In this document: positions 1 through 6,655 of the stretch, piece after piece | How the letters are laid out: every line of letters begins with the position of its first letter | Position numbering within the stretch: the first letter of the stretch is position 1 | Origin: Myxococcota bacterium | GTDB taxonomy: Bacteria; Myxococcota; XYA12-FULL-58-9; JABJBS01 | Direction: 5' to 3' | NCBI GenBank assembly: GCA_036128675.1 | Contig: JAYYQC010000118.1 | Span: forward strand, 1 to 10,000 | Length of the DNA stretch: 10,000 nucleotides | Made by a program: the position numbers and the translations under genes | The notes under the pieces: generated by a model | Databases searched by the model: none | Told to the model about the DNA's origin: nothing | The model's input: only the letters and a program-made list of their open reading frames with translations

Positions 1-802
1 TCTACTGGGTGCGGCGATGCTTTGGTTCGGTTGGTTTGGCTTCAACGCCGGCTCTTCGCTTGCCGCAGATGGCATCGCGGTGAACGCGTTGATGACAACG
101 CATCTGGCGGCTGCGAGTGCGCTTTTGGTTTGGAGTCTCTGCGAGCTCGTCAGTGGAAGTCGCCCGAGCGCGACTGGTCTTGCTATAGGCGCAGTCGTGG
201 GCCTCGTTGGGGTCACACCTGCAGCAGGCTTTGTTGATTCGCTCGGAGCGATTGCGATTGGCGGTCTCTCCTCCGTTTCAGCATTTGTTGCGATGACTTA
301 TCTGAAGAGATTCGCGCTTGATGACGCGCTTGATGTCTTTGCTTGCCACGGTGTCGGAGGCATCGTCGGGTCGCTCTTGACCGGTGTTTTCGCGTCGACT
401 GCGGTAAACCCTGGTGGTGCAGATGGCTTGCTTGCCGGCAATCCCGCTCAGATGTGGCCACAGCTCACAAGTGTATTAGCGGCAGGTCTGCTGGCGGCAG
501 TCGGAACCTGGACGATCCTTAAGCTGCTCGAACTCACGATTGGGATTCGAGTCTCATCGAATGATGAGCTAAGCCTAGACCAAGCCCTTCATGAAGAGGC
601 TGCCTACGACCAATCTGGGGAGAAACTTTTTGGTGAACGGGTAGTCGACGCTGGCTACGCGACAGCTGCGCAAGTAACCGAAGCACTTCGCTACCAGGTA
701 GAACATGCTTCATCTACGCCGCTTGGTGAGCTTTTGTGTCAGCGAGGGTGTCTAAAGGCTGACCAGCTCTCGGAGCTTTTAGAGTATCGCTTTAGTCGCT
801 AA
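1..802 (+). CDS. amt: Ammonium transporter (Amt/MEP/Rh family), 5-prime truncated at window edge, about 265 C-terminal residues visible. About 63 extra residues follow the canonical Amt C-terminus.
   Basis: The frame is open from nt 2 (LLGAAMLWFGWFGFNAGS...). WFGWFGFNAGS is the Amt signature around the central TM helices. Successive hydrophobic helices follow (GLAIGAVVGLVGVTPAAGF, LGAIAIGGLSSVSAFVAM, HGVGGIVGSLLTGVFA, LTSVLAAGLLAAVGTWTI). The tail GIRVSSNDELSLDQALHEEAAY is co-linear with the E. coli AmtB C-terminus. The ORF then continues to 802. Confidence 0.9.
   Translation, partial: LLGAAMLWFGWFGFNAGSSLAADGIAVNALMTTHLAAASALLVWSLCELVSGSRPSATGLAIGAVVGLVGVTPAAGFVDSLGAIAIGGLSSVSAFVAMTYLKRFALDDALDVFACHGVGGIVGSLLTGVFASTAVNPGGADGLLAGNPAQMWPQLTSVLAAGLLAAVGTWTILKLLELTIGIRVSSNDELSLDQALHEEAAYDQSGEKLFGERVVDAGYATAAQVTEALRYQVEHASSTPLGELLCQRGCLKADQLSELLEYRFSR
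626..793 (+). other. Tandem MshEN-like motifs (GspE/T2SSE N-terminal type, candidate c-di-GMP-binding) in the cytoplasmic tail of the ammonium transporter
   Basis: Residues 204-227, LFGERVVDAGYATAAQVTEALRYQ, fit the published 24-residue MshEN motif RLGxxLLxxGLLxxxxLxxALxxQ at G3, V6V7, G10, V17, A20L21 and Q24. After a 7-8 residue spacer, PLGELLCQRGCLKADQLSELLEYR fits at L2G3, L5L6, G10, L12, L17, L20L21. Read by eye from the translation. No HMM was run. Confidence 0.5.
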
Positions 803-2602
803 CGCGCTTACCTTCTCCCGAACGGTTGGAAGGGTAAGGTTCACGGAGGTCCCTTCTCCGGGCTTGGTGACGATATCAATTGTGCCCCCAATGGCCCGTA
901 CCCTACTCGTGATATTACGAAGGCCAAAGTGACGATAATTTTCACTGCCGGTGAAGTACCCCCCAAGCTCGAACCCAATGCCCTTGTCTCGAACTGAGAT
1001 GAAGAGGTCGCCTGCAGCCATCTCATTAAGCTCTATTTCCACTTGCTTGGTCTCAGCGTGTTTAACCACGTTGAAGAGCAGCTCTCTTACGCACTGGAAA
1101 GCCAGAGCTTCGATTTCAGCGGACTCTAGGCGTTCGTAACTTAGGGTCGATTCAAGCTGAACAGTGAGCCCAAACCGCTCGGACATCGAGTCTCGGATCC
1201 ATTCAATCGCTGCAATGAACCCGGACTCTTTGAGAACCGCCGGGTTCAGGTCGATGCTCATGGTGCGTACCCGTTGAATGCAATCGTCGATAGAGTCCGA
1301 GAGCACCTTCATCTGGGGCTTGGCATTGGAGGGTAAATTGTTGTCGAGAGACGCTAATTGAAAACGAAGCCCTACGAGGTCTTGTTGAAGACTATCGTGG
1401 AGAACCATTGCGATACGTTGACGTTCGCGGTGCTCCACTTCGTTGACTTGAATTGCTAGCCCTTGCAGCTGGTGGGCTTGTTCCCGGACAGTCTTGAGGT
1501 GACTTGCAATGCCTTTTTCTAGCTGTGCTTTCTGCGATTTTAGCTGGCTAAACTTATGATGGCGTTGTGTGATATTACTCAGGGTCCCGGAGAGCGTTGA
1601 TGCTTGTGCTGAGACCTCCAAGACAACTTGAATCCACTGCTTTTGTGCGGACTCCTGACCGTGCATTGCGATCTCGACTTCTGCGGGGCCATCTTGGCGG
1701 GCTTGTCGGATTGCATCGTAGAGAAGGGGGCGGGAGTCTGGCTCAATGCGTCGAAGGATCTCTTTAAGGCCTAACTCGCTGTTGTCTGGAAGGGCGAGTG
1801 CTTTTGCCGCGATCGGTGAGAATTCCAATTCGTTGGTGTTGAGTGAATAACTCCAAGTACCCATACCAACCGAGTTGAGGCTCATCGCCATGAGATTGTA
1901 GGCGTCGGCTAGGAGGGTCTGGGTAGCCAGCAGAGCGTTGCGCCAGCGCATGAGGAGATTGAGTGTTCGATGCCACATGAGACCTAAGAGGATGAAAAAT
2001 CCTAAGGCACTGATGAGTCCAAGTGTCGCCCAAGACTGCTTTTGGCGAAGACTCTTGTCGAACCTTGCATCGATTTGTTCGAGGAAATTGATCATACCCT
2101 CAAGGTAGATCACCTTTTGCTCATCGTACGCACTCTGTCCGAGAACTGCCCGGGCTCTCTCGATGTCCCCGCTTTGAACCGCTTGCAGTGCTTGGCGCTC
2201 CATCTCCACCAGTCGACGGTTGGCTTCGTCTGTTTGGAGAGTGGCTTGGGTGGTCTGTACGTCGTCCTGAACCAGCGCCTCGGTTTCCTTAAGCAGCTTC
2301 TCAAGCAACGGCTCGTTATAGTTGTATCGCTCAATCCATTGTTCATCACCGGTTGCAACCGCCATCCGTGCTGACATTGTAAGTACTTCGTCGAGACGGA
2401 GAATTTCGCCTCTCAATAAAATGAGTTCTTGTTGCTTCTCTCGCAACTCATTCATCGACTTGGGGATATTGTAGACAAGCAGGGCCAGGTAGCAGACCGC
2501 AACGACGGTGAGAGTTGCGGCGAGGCTTAGAGCCGTTCCGGGATAGTCGACCTTGGTCGTCCCGCTTTTTTCAGCGGGGAACTCGGATAGCTTAGATTTC
2601 AT
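779..2602 (-). CDS. Sensor histidine kinase, HisKA_3 (NarX/LiaS/DegS-type) family: TM1, about 145-aa helical periplasmic domain, TM2, PAS-like domain, coiled coil, HisKA_3, HATPase_c
   Basis: H-box ERQRIAMVLHDSLQQDLVGLRFQL (phospho-His at nt 1397-1399). N-box ELLFNVVKHA. G-boxes DKGIGF and GLRNITSRVRAIGGTIDIVTKPGEGTSVNLTLP. Hydrophobic segments ALSLAATLTVVAVCYLALLVY (aa 24-45) and WATLGLISALGFFILLGLMW (aa 191-210) bracket a helical, heptad-rich extracytoplasmic region. Its start overlaps the upstream response-regulator gene by 11 nt. Its last 24 nt overlap the convergent amt gene. Confidence 0.9.
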   Translation of the reverse strand: MKSKLSEFPAEKSGTTKVDYPGTALSLAATLTVVAVCYLALLVYNIPKSMNELREKQQELILLRGEILRLDEVLTMSARMAVATGDEQWIERYNYNEPLLEKLLKETEALVQDDVQTTQATLQTDEANRRLVEMERQALQAVQSGDIERARAVLGQSAYDEQKVIYLEGMINFLEQIDARFDKSLRQKQSWATLGLISALGFFILLGLMWHRTLNLLMRWRNALLATQTLLADAYNLMAMSLNSVGMGTWSYSLNTNELEFSPIAAKALALPDNSELGLKEILRRIEPDSRPLLYDAIRQARQDGPAEVEIAMHGQESAQKQWIQVVLEVSAQASTLSGTLSNITQRHHKFSQLKSQKAQLEKGIASHLKTVREQAHQLQGLAIQVNEVEHRERQRIAMVLHDSLQQDLVGLRFQLASLDNNLPSNAKPQMKVLSDSIDDCIQRVRTMSIDLNPAVLKESGFIAAIEWIRDSMSERFGLTVQLESTLSYERLESAEIEALAFQCVRELLFNVVKHAETKQVEIELNEMAAGDLFISVRDKGIGFELGGYFTGSENYRHFGLRNITSRVRAIGGTIDIVTKPGEGTSVNLTLPTVREKVSALATKAIL

Positions 2603-3278
2603 TGAGCCAATTGAATGCTAGGCGCAGGAGTTGGGGCTGGGTTTGAACTCCAAGCTTTCGCTTAATATGCGCGTAGTGGGCTTCGACGGTTTTGACACTG
2701 ATGAAGAGCTTTTCGGCGATCAAACGCGTCGCGGTCCCTTGTCCGAGGAGTTCAAATATTTCGAGTTCACGGTTGCTCAAAACGCTATAAGGCGAGAGGT
2801 CGTCTGAAGGGCCACCTTGGACAACGCGTCGTAGAAGTCGGTCTTGTTGATCTCGACTGAGTGCAACTTCGTTGCGTACCACTTGCCGAATGCCATTGAG
2901 AAGTTCCGCAGGAGGAGCGGTTTTCATGAAGTAGCCTCGCGCTCCTGCCTTGAGTGCGCGCTCCGCATAGAGTTCTTCTTCATGCATCGAGACGATCAAA
3001 ATTGGGGTTTCAATATCGGAATTACGAACCCGCCGGATCATCTCAATCCCGTTGATATCACCCAGGCTTAGGTCAGCAACGATAACGTCGCATGAGATAT
3101 GTTTGAGGAGTTCGAGGGCAGACCCGCCGGACTCAGCTTCGCCCACGACGGCCATATCTTCTTGGTTGTCGATAAGTGCTTTCAACCCACAACGTACGAC
3201 TGGGTGGTCCTCAACTAATACAGCTCGAATTGGCCCTTGGTTATCGGTTGCATCAGAAACTAGTTTAGCCGTAGTCAT
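2592..3278 (-). CDS. Response regulator, NarL/FixJ family (REC plus LuxR-type HTH)
   Basis: Receiver motifs AVLVEDHPVVRCGLKALI and CDVIVADLSLGDINGIEMI (acceptor Asp in VADLS), with PILIVSMHEEELYAERALKAGARGYF (K-box). The C-terminal LuxR HTH is LSNRELEIFELLGQGTATRLIAEKLFISVKTVEAHYAHIKRKLGV. A strong SD (AGGAGG) lies 8 nt before the ATG at 3278 on the - strand. The 11-nt overlap with the kinase gene suggests translational coupling. Confidence 0.92.
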   Translation of the reverse strand: MTTAKLVSDATDNQGPIRAVLVEDHPVVRCGLKALIDNQEDMAVVGEAESGGSALELLKHISCDVIVADLSLGDINGIEMIRRVRNSDIETPILIVSMHEEELYAERALKAGARGYFMKTAPPAELLNGIRQVVRNEVALSRDQQDRLLRRVVQGGPSDDLSPYSVLSNRELEIFELLGQGTATRLIAEKLFISVKTVEAHYAHIKRKLGVQTQPQLLRLAFNWLNEI

Positions 3279-3506: not shown

Positions 3507-4562
3507 ATGAAAGCAAATATCCAAGCCGAATATCTATGGCTTGACGGCGCAGAGCCAACTCAGGCCTTACGTTCAAAAACCAGAATTATCCGTCGGGATG
3601 TTGATACTTTACCGTCTCATGATGAGCTACCCACTTGGGGCTTTGATGGTTCATCGACCAACCAGGCGTCCGGCGGCGATTCCGACCTGATGTTGCAGCC
3701 CGTTCGCGTTGTCCGCGACCCGATCCGCGGTGGCTCAAATATCTTGGTCCTCTGCGAGGTCATGCATGCGAACGGCAAGCCTCACGAAACCAACCACCGT
3801 GCTGCTCTTCGTGATGTACTGGACCGAGGCGCCGATCGAGAAAATGCCTGGTTCGGCTTTGAGCAAGAATACACACTCTTCAGTGACCAAACACCTCTCG
3901 GCTGGCCGAGCCATGGATACCCTGCGCCTCAGGGACCTTTCTATTGTTCAGTTGGCGCATCGGTTGCATTCGGCCGAACGGTTTGTCAGCGCCATACAGA
4001 TGCCTGTTTGGATGCAGGACTCTTATTCTTTGGTACGAACGCGGAAGTTATGCCAGGGCAGTGGGAGTTCCAAATTGGTTACCGTGGCGACAAAGACGAG
4101 GTCATTGACCCATTGGTATGTACCGACCACCTCTGGATCGCACGTTGGCTTCTTCACCGTATCGCTGAAGAAGAAAACATCACCGTCTCGTTTGAAAACA
4201 AGCCGGTTAAAGGTGATTGGAACGGTGCAGGAATGCACACGAACTTCTCGACTGATTCAATGCGTAGCCGCGAGCGTGGACGCGGTGTCATCGAAGACGC
4301 CGTGGTTGCTTTAGGTAAGCGTCATGCGGAGCACATTGCAATTTATGGCGCGGGTCTGGATGAGAGGCTTACTGGGCTTCATGAGACCTGTAGCATCAAA
4401 GAATTCAAGCATGGGGTTGCTGACCGTGGTGCTTCAATTCGTATCCCCCGTCATGTTGCTGAAGAGGGCTATGGTTACCTCGAAGATCGACGGCCGGGTG
4501 CGAACGCGAACCCATACCAAGTAAGCGCCGAGATTCTGAAGACTGTCTGTAATTTAGACTAA
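3507..4562 (+). CDS. glnII: Glutamine synthetase type II (GSII, eukaryote-like, about 351 aa)
   Basis: MKANIQAEYLWLDG...LRSKTR, FDGSSTNQASGGDSD, WFGFEQEYTLF, PQGPFYCSVGA, NAEVMPGQWEFQIGY, KPVKGDWNGAGMHTNFST, HIAIYGAGLDERLTGLHETCSIKEFKHGVADRGASIRIPR and YLEDRRPGANANPYQV are co-linear with the GSII motifs of Rhizobium, Streptomyces and plants. Start chosen at ATG 3507 (SD GGGAGAAG 5-12 nt upstream) rather than the TTG at 3474 used by the ORF track. Confidence 0.9.
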   Translation: MKANIQAEYLWLDGAEPTQALRSKTRIIRRDVDTLPSHDELPTWGFDGSSTNQASGGDSDLMLQPVRVVRDPIRGGSNILVLCEVMHANGKPHETNHRAALRDVLDRGADRENAWFGFEQEYTLFSDQTPLGWPSHGYPAPQGPFYCSVGASVAFGRTVCQRHTDACLDAGLLFFGTNAEVMPGQWEFQIGYRGDKDEVIDPLVCTDHLWIARWLLHRIAEEENITVSFENKPVKGDWNGAGMHTNFSTDSMRSRERGRGVIEDAVVALGKRHAEHIAIYGAGLDERLTGLHETCSIKEFKHGVADRGASIRIPRHVAEEGYGYLEDRRPGANANPYQVSAEILKTVCNLD

Positions 4563-4608: not shown

Positions 4609-4635
4609 TCATTACCGAACGACTAGGGGAAAGCT

Positions 4636-6243
4636 ATGGAAATTGTATCAGCCGAAGAGGCAGGTCGAGCTAAAAAACGAACGAAGAAAAAATCAACATC
4701 GAAGCTCAACGTTGATCGAGCTGGAATCGAACGCGAAGAAGCGCTTTTTCGGGCTCTTGATACAGCGCGTGAAGGTTTTGTTCGCCGCGAGGTAATCATC
4801 GATGCCCTAAAGCTCAGCGGTTTACGACTCGATGACCCGAGGTTGGACGAAACGCTTAAGCGTCTCGATGACCTCGACCCGCCGAATGAGATCGGCTTAG
4901 AGGCCTTCGCTTCAGCGATTGCACCATCGGTGTCTCTGATTGAACGCGCCTTGAAGGGACGTTTGGTCATTCCTGACTTTAAGCAGTTCGAGGGAGAGAT
5001 CCGGGAGATCTTTGAAGAGACTCGAGGTTTTGAGGGCGGCAAGGTTGCTGACTATATCCCCCAACTCGGTCGCGTATCACCGGAACGTTATGGTGTGGCA
5101 CTGTGTACGATCGATGGACAAAGATTGGCCCTCGGTGATGCCGACGAACGTTTCTGCGTTCAGTCGACCTGTAAGCCAATTAACTATTGCCTCGCGTTAG
5201 ATGAACAAGCACCGGAAAAGGTCCATTCTCATGTTGGCCGCGAGCCGAGCGGTCGTGGCTTTAACGAGCTTGCTCTAAATCACGATGGTCGGCCGCACAA
5301 CCCGATGATCAACGCTGGCGCCATCATGACATGTTCTCTCATCAAGCCTGAGCTTGATGTTGCCGATCGGTTTGATCATGTGATGCAGCGCTGGTCGGAT
5401 CTTTGTGGTGGTGCAAAGCCTTCGTTTAGTAACTCCATTTACCTCTCTGAGCGCCAAACTGCTGACCGAAATTTCGCGTTGGGTTATTTCATGCGTGAGC
5501 ACGAGGCATTCCCAGATGGAACGGAGCTTGTTGATATCCTTGAGTTCTATTTCCAGTGCTGTTCCATCGAAGTGACAGCCGAGATGATGTCGATGGTCGC
5601 TGCGACTCTCGCCAACGGTGGGATTTGTCCGACTACGGGCCTTCGTGTCTTTGGTCCCGAGACGGTGCGAAACTGCCTGTCCTTGATGTACTCGTGCGGC
5701 ATGTATGACTTTTCGGGCGAGTTTGCCTTTACAATCGGTCTACCTGCGAAGAGCGGCGTTTCCGGGGCTATGATGATCGTCATCCCGAACGTGATGGGCG
5801 TGTGTACTTGGTCACCTCGCTTAGACCGTCTCGGCAACAGTGTTCGCGGCATCGAGTTCTGTAAGTCGCTTGTGGAGCGGTACAATTTTCATAACTACGA
5901 CAATTTGACTGGCATCTCCGATAAACGAGATCCTCGTCATGATGCCTCTGCCGATGAAGGGGAGCATATTGCTCTTATGATTTGGGCGGCAAGCCGCGGC
6001 GACCTTGGGGCAATTCAACGCCTTATCGCCCGTGGTGCCTCGATTGATGCGCCTGATTATGACGGACGTACCCCGCTGCATTTAGCGGCGGCTGAAGGCC
6101 AAAGACATGTCGTTGAGTTCTTTTTGAAAGCGGGTGCAAAGCTGTCGCCAGCGGATCGTTGGGGCAACACACCTCTCGATGACGCTAAGAAAGCGAAGCA
6201 CAACGAAATTACGGAAATGCTTGAGCGCTCTGGGCTCAATTAA
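4636..6243 (+). CDS. Kidney-type (GLS-like) glutaminase, full-length eukaryote-like architecture: N-terminal helical (EF-hand-like) domain, serine-dependent beta-lactamase-fold catalytic domain, C-terminal ankyrin repeats
   Basis: GGKVADYIPQL, FCVQSTCKP (catalytic Ser177-x-x-Lys180, nt 5164-5175), HVGREPSG, HNPMINAGAI, SERQTADRNFALGYF, FYFQCCSIEVT, ATLANGG, LSLMYSCGMYDFSGEFAF, GLPAKSGVSGAMMIVIPNVMG and GNSVRGIEFC are co-linear with human GLS/KGA as I recall it. I estimate more than half of catalytic-domain positions identical. The C-terminus holds three ankyrin repeats (DYDGRTPLHLAAAEGQRHVVEFFLKAGAKLSPADRWGNTPLDDA). The N-terminal ALKLSGLRLDDPRLDETLKRL parallels GLS ALKSTGLRTSDPRLKECMDMLRL. 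SD GGGGAA precedes the ATG. Confidence 0.92.
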   Translation: MEIVSAEEAGRAKKRTKKKSTSKLNVDRAGIEREEALFRALDTAREGFVRREVIIDALKLSGLRLDDPRLDETLKRLDDLDPPNEIGLEAFASAIAPSVSLIERALKGRLVIPDFKQFEGEIREIFEETRGFEGGKVADYIPQLGRVSPERYGVALCTIDGQRLALGDADERFCVQSTCKPINYCLALDEQAPEKVHSHVGREPSGRGFNELALNHDGRPHNPMINAGAIMTCSLIKPELDVADRFDHVMQRWSDLCGGAKPSFSNSIYLSERQTADRNFALGYFMREHEAFPDGTELVDILEFYFQCCSIEVTAEMMSMVAATLANGGICPTTGLRVFGPETVRNCLSLMYSCGMYDFSGEFAFTIGLPAKSGVSGAMMIVIPNVMGVCTWSPRLDRLGNSVRGIEFCKSLVERYNFHNYDNLTGISDKRDPRHDASADEGEHIALMIWAASRGDLGAIQRLIARGASIDAPDYDGRTPLHLAAAEGQRHVVEFFLKAGAKLSPADRWGNTPLDDAKKAKHNEITEMLERSGLN

Positions 6244-6250
6244 GGAGACA

Positions 6251-6655
6251 ATGATGAACTTAGTCTTTGTTATCGCAATGAATGCCGCGTTGGCCTGTGG
6301 GGATGCGAAGGCATCGGTGGAATTTGATGTTCCAGCTTCAGTACTGACCGTCAACGATGGTACCGAACTACTTCGTGAGTTGAGTGGCGTTTTGCTAAAA
6401 GATGGCAAAATTACTCTGGATGCTAAGAATGGACTTATTCGAGGTACACAGCAGGCGTTCGGTGATTATCGGGTCTCATTAAACATGGACCGCCGACAAC
6501 TGGCGCTCTCCTGCGGTGCGGCGAAGGCTACCACCGAAGTCACCACGAAGCGTCACGCTCGGGGACGCCGCTTCGCATCAAGCTCAGCGCAGACCTCTCG
6601 TTGCGAACGAGAAGTTTCTGCAATGATCCAGACGCATCTAACGGCGTCACGTTGA
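6251..6655 (+). CDS. Hypothetical small exported protein (134 aa) with an N-terminal signal peptide and a possible lipobox (ALAC). The C-terminal third is Arg/Ser/Thr-rich.
   Basis: ATGATG at 6251 lies 5 nt after a perfect AAGGAG and 7 nt after the glutaminase stop. MMNLVFVIAMNAALAC|GDAKA is a Sec/lipoprotein-type leader. The ORF fills the whole gap between the glutaminase and the convergent yqjG. I recognise no family. Confidence 0.55.
   Translation: MMNLVFVIAMNAALACGDAKASVEFDVPASVLTVNDGTELLRELSGVLLKDGKITLDAKNGLIRGTQQAFGDYRVSLNMDRRQLALSCGAAKATTEVTTKRHARGRRFASSSAQTSRCEREVSAMIQTHLTASR

Follow-up and report, generated by a model that had tools for sequence, protein, structure and literature searches.

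The window, by which we mean the whole stretch of 10,000 nucleotides (nt) analysed here (positions 1 to 10,000 of contig JAYYQC010000118.1 from a marine Myxococcota bacterium), opens with the 3' part of an ammonium transporter gene (amt) whose product runs past the end of canonical Amt proteins into a short C-terminal tail. Homology and structure prediction make it well supported that this tail is a minimal MshEN_N subdomain without the alpha/beta MshEN_C subdomain, the latter being absent since the protein ends three residues beyond the second of two tandem motifs. [quoted passage not shown] The gene is laid out as follows.

2 to 802, forward strand: amt, C-terminal part (frame 2, uninterrupted between nt 2 and the stop codon TAA at 800-802)
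2 to 607, forward strand: Amt channel domain, C-terminal half (Pfam PF00909, PDB alignment)
608 to 625, forward strand: linker DQSGEK, 6 residues (non-conserved alignment columns)
626 to 697, forward strand: MshEN-type motif I, LFGERVVDAGYATAAQVTEALRYQ, helices 1 and 2 (motif, NF053729, predicted helices from AlphaFold2, AF2)
698 to 718, forward strand: spacer VEHASST, 7 residues, non-conserved (length constant in 11/11 tails)
719 to 790, forward strand: MshEN-type motif II, PLGELLCQRGCLKADQLSELLEYR, helices 3 and 4 (motif, conserved columns)
791 to 802, forward strand: terminal FSR and stop codon (reading frame)

The full-length Amt comprises 464 residues, of which residues 199-464 are encoded in the window and residues 1-198 upstream of it. 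The complete gene was located on two near-identical metagenome contigs (L003:4253-5647 and L004:3764-5158), which were retrieved through the neighbouring response regulator; an exact look-up with the kinase gave no match. The matches to the channel domain (Pfam Ammonium_transp PF00909, E = 1.8e-52; TIGR00836, E = 2.1e-54) both stop at residue 202 of the window fragment, where the Amt domain ends with LDQALHEEAAY (HEEAAY at nt 590-607), and the experimental structures of Amt-1 (A. fulgidus) and AmtB (E. coli) terminate at the equivalent position. An earlier reading of this DNA from its letters alone (the original prediction) had proposed that the protein continues for about 63 residues beyond the canonical AmtB end, and the continuation was confirmed at 64 residues.

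The pore residues are invariant in the alignments, including both histidines (H166, H314) and the DFAGG and FNAGS motifs, among others. A regular-expression search of the 464-residue protein for the N1/N2 ammonium-receptor signature, QX6EX15NX2D[F/T]X54-60TX2[S/T], gave no match, and the status of a sensor Amt was rejected on this ground. Since the pore residues are kept and the signature is absent, the protein is more likely to function as a transporter than as a dedicated sensor. Exact look-ups matched the proteins of the window to those of a Myxococcota metagenome-assembled genome (MAG) at NCBI (accessions MEC8050062-71), whose record labels the Amt only as 'ammonia channel protein, partial'. 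The precomputed Pfam annotation gives PF00909 alone for every tail-bearing member, and the fusion would therefore be missed by architecture surveys.

Motif match, family and fold of the tail

The tail was compared with the tandem 24-residue pattern (R/K/L)LGxx(L/V/I)(L/V/I)xxG(L/V/I)(L/V/I)xxxxLxxxLxxQ, scoring 11 defining positions per motif according to the relaxed motif of PMC5013675, with position 1 extended as in PMC11731258 and cysteine counted as hydrophobic. On this scale the window tail reached 22/22, and none of 200,000 composition-preserving shuffles of the 64-residue tail scored above 19/22. Measured against the strict motif, deviations were present at L1, F2, Y11, A12 and V17 of motif I and at P1, C7, C11 and R24 of motif II. 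The claim that the first copy is perfect at its defining positions hence holds for the relaxed and extended consensus and fails for the strict motif (L1 instead of R, F2, Y11, A12), and the second copy is present, with R in place of Q at its end besides P1, C7 and C11. Two details depart from the standard arrangement: motif I starts with L-F instead of R-L, and the spacer comprises seven residues instead of five. A spacer of seven residues exceeds that of V. cholerae MshE (5 residues) and equals those of PilF GSPII-C and Geobacter PilB, with which the alignment is free of gaps.

The NCBIfam model NF053729 ('cyclic di-GMP-binding domain-containing protein, MshE-related'; 53 positions; curated cut-off 38 bits) matched the window tail with E = 3e-9 to 5e-9 and 36.0-36.4 bits, just under the cut-off. 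All of the 11 tails identified (the window's own and the ten described below) matched this model (30.6-49.9 bits, E 2e-7 to 2e-13), five of them above the curated cut-off (40.0-49.9 bits) and the other six at 30.6-37.7 bits, and the MshEN region of the NfrB model was matched by 9/11. When a profile of the 11 tails was searched against all PDB sequences, solely GSPII/MshEN domains were retrieved below E = 0.1, namely those of T. thermophilus PilF (9.4e-20), Geobacter PilB (1.8e-10) and V. cholerae MshE (5htl; 8.8e-9), as well as entries of the c-di-GMP-binding GSPII-B domain of PilF and of M. xanthus PilB. The best structural matches of the tail were likewise MshEN/GSPII domains.

A missing match to Pfam T2SSE_N (PF05157) had been named beforehand as a refutation of the assignment. 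At E <= 1 this model had no match in any of the 11 tails; it also failed to match the isolated genuine MshEN_N segments of PilF GSPII-B, PilF GSPII-C and Geobacter PilB used as controls. Since genuine segments are missed too, the negative result is uninformative and was rejected as a refutation. Weak matches to DUF4388 and FumaraseC_C were common to the Amt tails and the PilF/PilB control segments; those to DUF4388 (PF14332) fell at profile positions of about 46-75, and the DUF4388 model appears to include a helix hairpin of the MshEN type.

AF2 prediction on the tail alignment gave four helices, the first of which begins at motif position 2 (predicted local distance difference test, pLDDT, 80-86). 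In the full-length AF2 model of the protein P0001 (97% identity with the window protein; mean pLDDT 92.7), the helices of the tail span residues 408-414, 420-432, 439-445 and 451-463 (pLDDT 90-97), and residues 381-410, comprising the Amt C-terminal region and the linker, have a pLDDT of 65-75 as compared to 90-97 in the flanking domains. The anticipated fold of two helix-turn-helix repeats was thus recovered by prediction as a four-helix bundle and not as a disordered tail, and each Amt subunit is predicted to carry one MshEN_N bundle on a short, probably flexible linker.

Conservation, distribution and origin

The tail was found in ten further proteins (P0001-P0007, P0009, P0122, P0197) with 55-97% overall identity; the conservation in related proteins on which the original prediction had made itself dependent is accordingly present. 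The frame, the tail length, the 7-residue spacer and the motif positions are kept across all 11 tails, and the next-closest Amts (404-436 residues) end a few residues beyond HxExAY. Identity among the tails themselves drops to ~30%. In 11/11 tails motif I keeps G3, G10, L21 and Q24 and motif II keeps G3, with L2, L17 and L21 of motif II nearly invariant; the tail alignment contains no conserved stretch of 7-10 columns. The positions invariant in the Amt tails are those that contact c-di-GMP or form the helix turns in MshE (Wang et al., PMC5013675), a pattern that points to selection on the ligand-contact positions of the bundle. The last position of motif II is occupied by Q in 6/11 tails and by R, L, I or no residue in the others, the Gln of motif I being invariant.

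In a neighbour-joining tree inferred from the Amt-core columns only, the tail-bearing proteins form a single clade (bootstrap 86/100), which splits into two subclades (support 100 and 98). At position 24 of motif II the members of the window's subclade carry R, R, no residue or L, and the sister subclade keeps Q. The tail was accordingly acquired once and then maintained, and is no product of read-through or assembly error.

Among the best 150 of 1.84 billion 50%-identity cluster representatives, only P0122 and P0197 were added as tail-bearing. The fusion is rare and so far confined to marine Myxococcota-type metagenome bins. In a GTDB scan with the full protein, generic Amts sharing the WFGWFGFN pattern saturated the matches, and 0/80 loci retained bear the tail; some matches that looked long (L013, L028, L059, L067 and others) proved on inspection to lack it. 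Word-indexed homologue searches with the 117-residue C-terminus or the tail alignment, both of them short queries, returned nothing at E <= 1e-3. Other C-terminal fusions were observed among the Amt relatives (P0128, P0145, P0138, P0150, L037), including CBS-domain pairs and a HisKA_3-like kinase segment, and P0150 and L037 represent covalent fusions of Amt with PII/GlnK-like domains.

Gene neighbourhood

The genes following amt in the window are listed below.

779 to 2602, reverse strand: sensor histidine kinase, 607 aa, HisKA_3 and HATPase_c domains (Pfam)
2592 to 3278, reverse strand: NarL-type response regulator, REC domain and GerE/LuxR helix-turn-helix (Pfam, synteny)
3507 to 4562, forward strand: glutamine synthetase (GS), 351 aa from ATG (Pfam Gln-synt_N and Gln-synt_C, synteny)
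4636 to 6243, forward strand: glutaminase with EF-hand_14 at its N-terminus and ankyrin repeats at its C-terminus (Pfam Glutaminase, E = 7.9e-110, EF-hand_14, Ank_2; synteny)

The kinase gene is convergent to amt and the two overlap by 24 nt at their 3' ends (779-802). This agrees with the earlier statement that the last 8 codons of amt are shared, the overlap comprising 7 sense codons and the stop codon on each side. The same overlap was called on the independent contigs L003 and L004, and the convergent arrangement on L002-L004. The last four codons of motif II (LEYR, nt 779-790) are dual-coding with the C-terminus of the kinase, which might constrain the deviant R at position 24 of this motif. 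The kinase has a weak CHASE3-like match at its N-terminus, and its gene overlaps that of the NarL-type regulator by 11 nt (2592-2602).

Together these genes form a conserved nitrogen module in the order amt with tail, convergent kinase, regulator, GS (divergent) and glutaminase, which recurs at the P0007, P0006, P0004 and P0365 loci, the kinase being missing in three of these; at the sister-subclade loci L006, L009 and L091 no kinase stands beside the regulator. In the tail-bearing loci amt is convergent and the NarL-type regulator is inserted between amt and GS; it adjoins amt in 5/5 tail-bearing loci with enough context. The tail-less relatives P0013, P0015 and P0017 have a co-directional GS-amt-glutaminase operon without the regulator. 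Tail and adjacent regulator therefore occur together in 5/5 tail-bearing and 0/3 tail-less loci, a small sample, and their co-occurrence may reflect a single ancestral rearrangement. A nitrogen module of glutaminase, GS and Amt was present at L006, L009, L091, L092, L097 and L098. The layout of the glutaminase, with EF-hand_14 and ankyrin repeats, resembles that of the animal kidney-type enzyme.

No glnK/PII gene was found beside amt in the flanks of six tail-bearing loci or of five tail-less relatives. The proposal of a PII-independent input gains no specific support from this, tail-bearing and tail-less relatives alike being without an adjacent glnK, and the idea that the tail substitutes for an adjacent glnK was rejected for the same reason. 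No c-di-GMP motif of the VpsT type (W[F/L/M][T/S]R) was seen in the neighbouring regulator when its sequence was read by eye. The intergenic region between regulator and GS contained no inverted repeat, and no terminator-like or promoter-like site was found around the convergent gene ends.

Upstream of amt, a divergent gene for a DUF6937/DUF6938 protein is conserved in the window's subclade (21-kb Logan contig, L096), with genes for PSD, PSCyt and HXXSHH domains, families first described in Planctomycetes, in its vicinity. A planctomycete source, to which these genes at first pointed, is contradicted by the NCBI record, where the MAG is placed in Myxococcota. Two open reading frames (ORFs) of the window have no family assignment (6134-6655, forward strand, 173 aa; 4623-5042, reverse strand, 139 aa), the second of which is antisense to the beginning of the glutaminase gene and unlikely to be a gene itself. 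In the TARA contig L001, however, a 133-residue gene was called between a GST-like gene and the glutaminase, and GS was called as two fragments (4848-5889; 244 + 113 aa). Most of the cluster genes are fragmented on the long-read contig L096. The split genes on L001 and L096 are probably frameshift errors and not biology.

Putative function of the tail

That members of the tail-bearing clade bind c-di-GMP is considered fairly probable; for the window's own protein binding is somewhat less probable, or may be of lower affinity. In MshE, the MshEN_N fold holds one c-di-GMP between its two repeats, and the isolated four-helix subdomain (residues 1-62) binds the ligand with a Kd of 0.35 uM, from which it follows that MshEN_C is dispensable for binding (PMC5013675). 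An Arg at position 1 is not required either, since GSPII-B of PilF (Kd 6 nM) carries K and L at this position, and the consensus was widened to (R/K/L) accordingly (Neissner et al., PMC11731258). PilF GSPII-C, which has P at position 1 of motif II and a Kd of about 0.3-0.5 uM (PMC11731258), aligns without gaps to the window tail through the 7-residue spacer, both having P at the start of motif II. The Gln that closes each of the two motifs in known receptors forms hydrogen bonds with the ribose and phosphate of c-di-GMP. The window tail has this Gln in motif I and R24 in motif II. The relaxed search motif allows R at the last position (PMC5013675), and the Q218E variant of GSPII-B, in which the final residue of motif II is exchanged, could still be crystallised with c-di-GMP bound (PDB 9glg).

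Several observations weigh against binding. In the window motif II ends in R and carries Cys at two core hydrophobic positions, and the series R, R, absent and L at position 24 implies that the second Gln is not under selection in the window's subclade. In the non-binding domain GSPII-A of PilF the final residue of motif II is R62, and R62Q is among the mutations needed to restore its binding (PMC12002112). The window tail stays below the curated cut-off of NF053729 (36.4 as compared to 38 bits), and GSPII-A reaches 55.5 bits on the same model, above every Amt tail. Family membership is therefore no guarantee of c-di-GMP binding, and the score of the hidden Markov model (HMM) was rejected as a proxy for it. 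Finally, no GGDEF, EAL or HD-GYP genes were found within flanks of about 10 kb in any locus examined.

The strongest alternative, which we regard as unlikely although deserving of serious attention, is that the tail is an MshEN-derived bundle without nucleotide binding that serves as a structural or protein-interaction module. It could stabilise or space the cytoplasmic face of the Amt trimer, block or recruit a partner such as PII, or bind a PilZ-like protein. Non-binding members of the family are well documented with PilF GSPII-A (PMC12002112), the N-domain of XpsE (PMC5013675) and the N-domain of X. citri PilB, which binds PilZ and is among the structural matches of the tail (7lkm). The loss of the motif II Gln in the window's subclade, the position of 6/11 tails under the NF053729 cut-off and the inability of the HMM score to separate binders from non-binders are also compatible with such a module. 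What speaks against it is that, at ~30% identity, the invariant columns are ligand-contact and turn residues, among them the motif I Gln, which has no obvious purely structural role. Moreover, the changes associated with loss of binding in XpsE (G11V, G40L, L54H, L58C and others; PMC5013675) are not seen in the Amt tails, and no extended N-capped first helix as in GSPII-A is predicted, helix 1 of the tail starting at motif position 2.

Taking both sides together, we lean towards the reading of the tail as a c-di-GMP input into ammonium uptake, based on its sequence and on analogy to known receptors. In Amts of bacteria and plants, the activity of the subunits is under the control of the C-terminal region, which also forms part of the GlnK docking surface. 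The tail of each subunit would bind one c-di-GMP through its two motifs, as do MshE, PilF GSPII-B/C and NfrB, and the ligand would order or reposition the bundle. On its short linker the 6-kDa bundle could then act through the Amt C-terminal region and alter channel activity or conductance; alternatively, it could occupy the cytoplasmic face and alter the access of partners. Ammonium uptake would in either case track the cellular c-di-GMP state, with activation and inhibition both possible. The more specific proposal that c-di-GMP or another cyclic dinucleotide gates the Amt directly, through a covalently attached minimal MshEN receptor, is put forward tentatively.

In comparison with known systems, the tail shares the tandem 24-residue motifs, the four-helix bundle and the invariant Gly, Leu and Gln positions with the MshEN/GSPII domains of MshE (5htl), PilF GSPII-B/C and the Geobacter and Myxococcus PilB proteins. 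These domains form the N-terminus of soluble hexameric ATPases, whereas the Amt tail is the C-terminus of an 11-helix membrane channel; it further differs from the domains of type II secretion and type IV pilus systems in comprising MshEN_N only, in having no Arg at the motif starts and in the R at the end of motif II. The nearest functional analogues would be NfrB and Sd-Amt1. E. coli NfrB is, like the Amt, a polytopic inner-membrane protein with a cytoplasmic C-terminal MshEN-type domain, a c-di-GMP receptor that allosterically activates the membrane glycosyltransferase (PMC8669469). Its output is thus a glycosyltransferase and not a channel, its soluble MshEN construct (414-745) is far larger than the Amt tail, its motif is described as fully conserved, and it has a dedicated cyclase partner, DgcJ, for which no counterpart was identified in the locus flanks examined.

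Sd-Amt1 (Amt-HAMP-GGDEF) and Ks-Amt5 (Amt-histidine kinase) also combine an Amt with a C-terminal signalling module, and Sd-Amt1 already ties an Amt to c-di-GMP (PMC11152129). In these proteins ammonium controls c-di-GMP synthesis or the kinase, whereas the tail described here would work in the opposite direction; the window Amt also differs from them in having no N1/N2 signature and in carrying a 58-residue binding-type domain with no enzymatic output. AmtB-GlnK complexes and Amt-PII fusions place a small cytoplasmic regulator that binds nucleotides or metabolites at the face of the Amt trimer, as is proposed for the tail. PII is a ferredoxin-like trimer that binds ATP, ADP and 2-oxoglutarate, in contrast to a four-helix bundle with c-di-GMP as the proposed ligand, and the pore is plugged by the GlnK T-loop, a mode of action for which the Amt tail offers no evidence.

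A further explanation, which we consider improbable, is that the tail docks the adjacent two-component system in the manner of a 'trigger transporter', so that conformations of the Amt C-terminal region that depend on transport would be passed on via the tail to the kinase or the NarL-type regulator, and these would control the neighbouring GS and glutaminase genes. The position of the regulator directly beside amt in all five tail-bearing loci with context and its absence from the three tail-less relatives with a GS/glutaminase module fit this explanation, as does the known ability of Amt domains to sense on behalf of kinases or cyclases fused to them (PMC11152129). The sample is small, however, and the association could stem from one rearrangement in the ancestor of the clade. 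In addition, the kinase is missing beside the regulator in 3/5 loci, the Amt is without the published receptor signature, and no contact between MshEN and REC or kinase domains is known.

Slightly less credible still is a tail that binds a different cyclic dinucleotide, e.g., 3',3'-cyclic GMP-AMP (3',3'-cGAMP). The affinity of MshEN_N for cGAMP is low (Kd 3.3e-4 M; PMC5013675), 3',3'-cGAMP is made by Myxococcus (PMC8844925), and the deviations in the window's subclade are asymmetric, affecting motif II only, so that the specificity of one half-site could differ. Against this, the hydrophobic and glycine positions in both half-sites stay of the guanine type, and no MshEN-type domain preferring cGAMP is known. 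An artefact, be it that a lost stop codon led to read-through, that the assembly is wrong or that the resemblance arose by chance, might be suspected from the incompleteness of the gene in the window and the overlap of its last 24 nt with another gene, and can be practically dismissed given the same open frame on independent contigs from several samples, the ten additional tails with the same frame, length, spacer and motif positions, the 0/200,000 shuffles reaching the motif score and the AF2 pLDDT of 90-97 for the tail.

The combination of Amt and MshEN_N seems not to have been described before. A search of the accessible literature, the MshEN paper of 2016 and its supplement included, brought up no account of the fusion, in line with the original prediction, which was aware of none, and no paper was found that connects MshEN/GSPII to the transport of ammonium or AmtB to c-di-GMP receptors. 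The partners of MshEN named by Wang et al. are REC, HD-GYP, CheA, CheX, cyclase, Ser/Thr kinase, glycosyltransferase and ATPase domains, and their text and supplement do not mention ammonium, Amt, transporter or permease (PMC5013675).

If the reading as a c-di-GMP input is correct, the protein would be the first second-messenger-controlled Amt and the mirror image of Sd-Amt1, with the messenger controlling the ammonium flux. Ammonium uptake universally proceeds through Amt channels, whose known post-translational controls are plugging by PII (GlnK) and, for eukaryotic members, the phosphorylation of their C-terminal region; c-di-GMP governs motile/sessile and developmental decisions, and such decisions are prominent in Myxococcota. 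The tail would thus represent a new class of input for Amt proteins, tying nitrogen acquisition to decisions governed by c-di-GMP and acting alongside, or instead of, PII plugging in this clade of Myxococcota. A solute channel would also join the secretion ATPases and glycosyltransferases among the outputs of MshEN domains, and the tail, with its about 58 residues, would be a very small natural module responsive to c-di-GMP, which one could try out on other membrane proteins.

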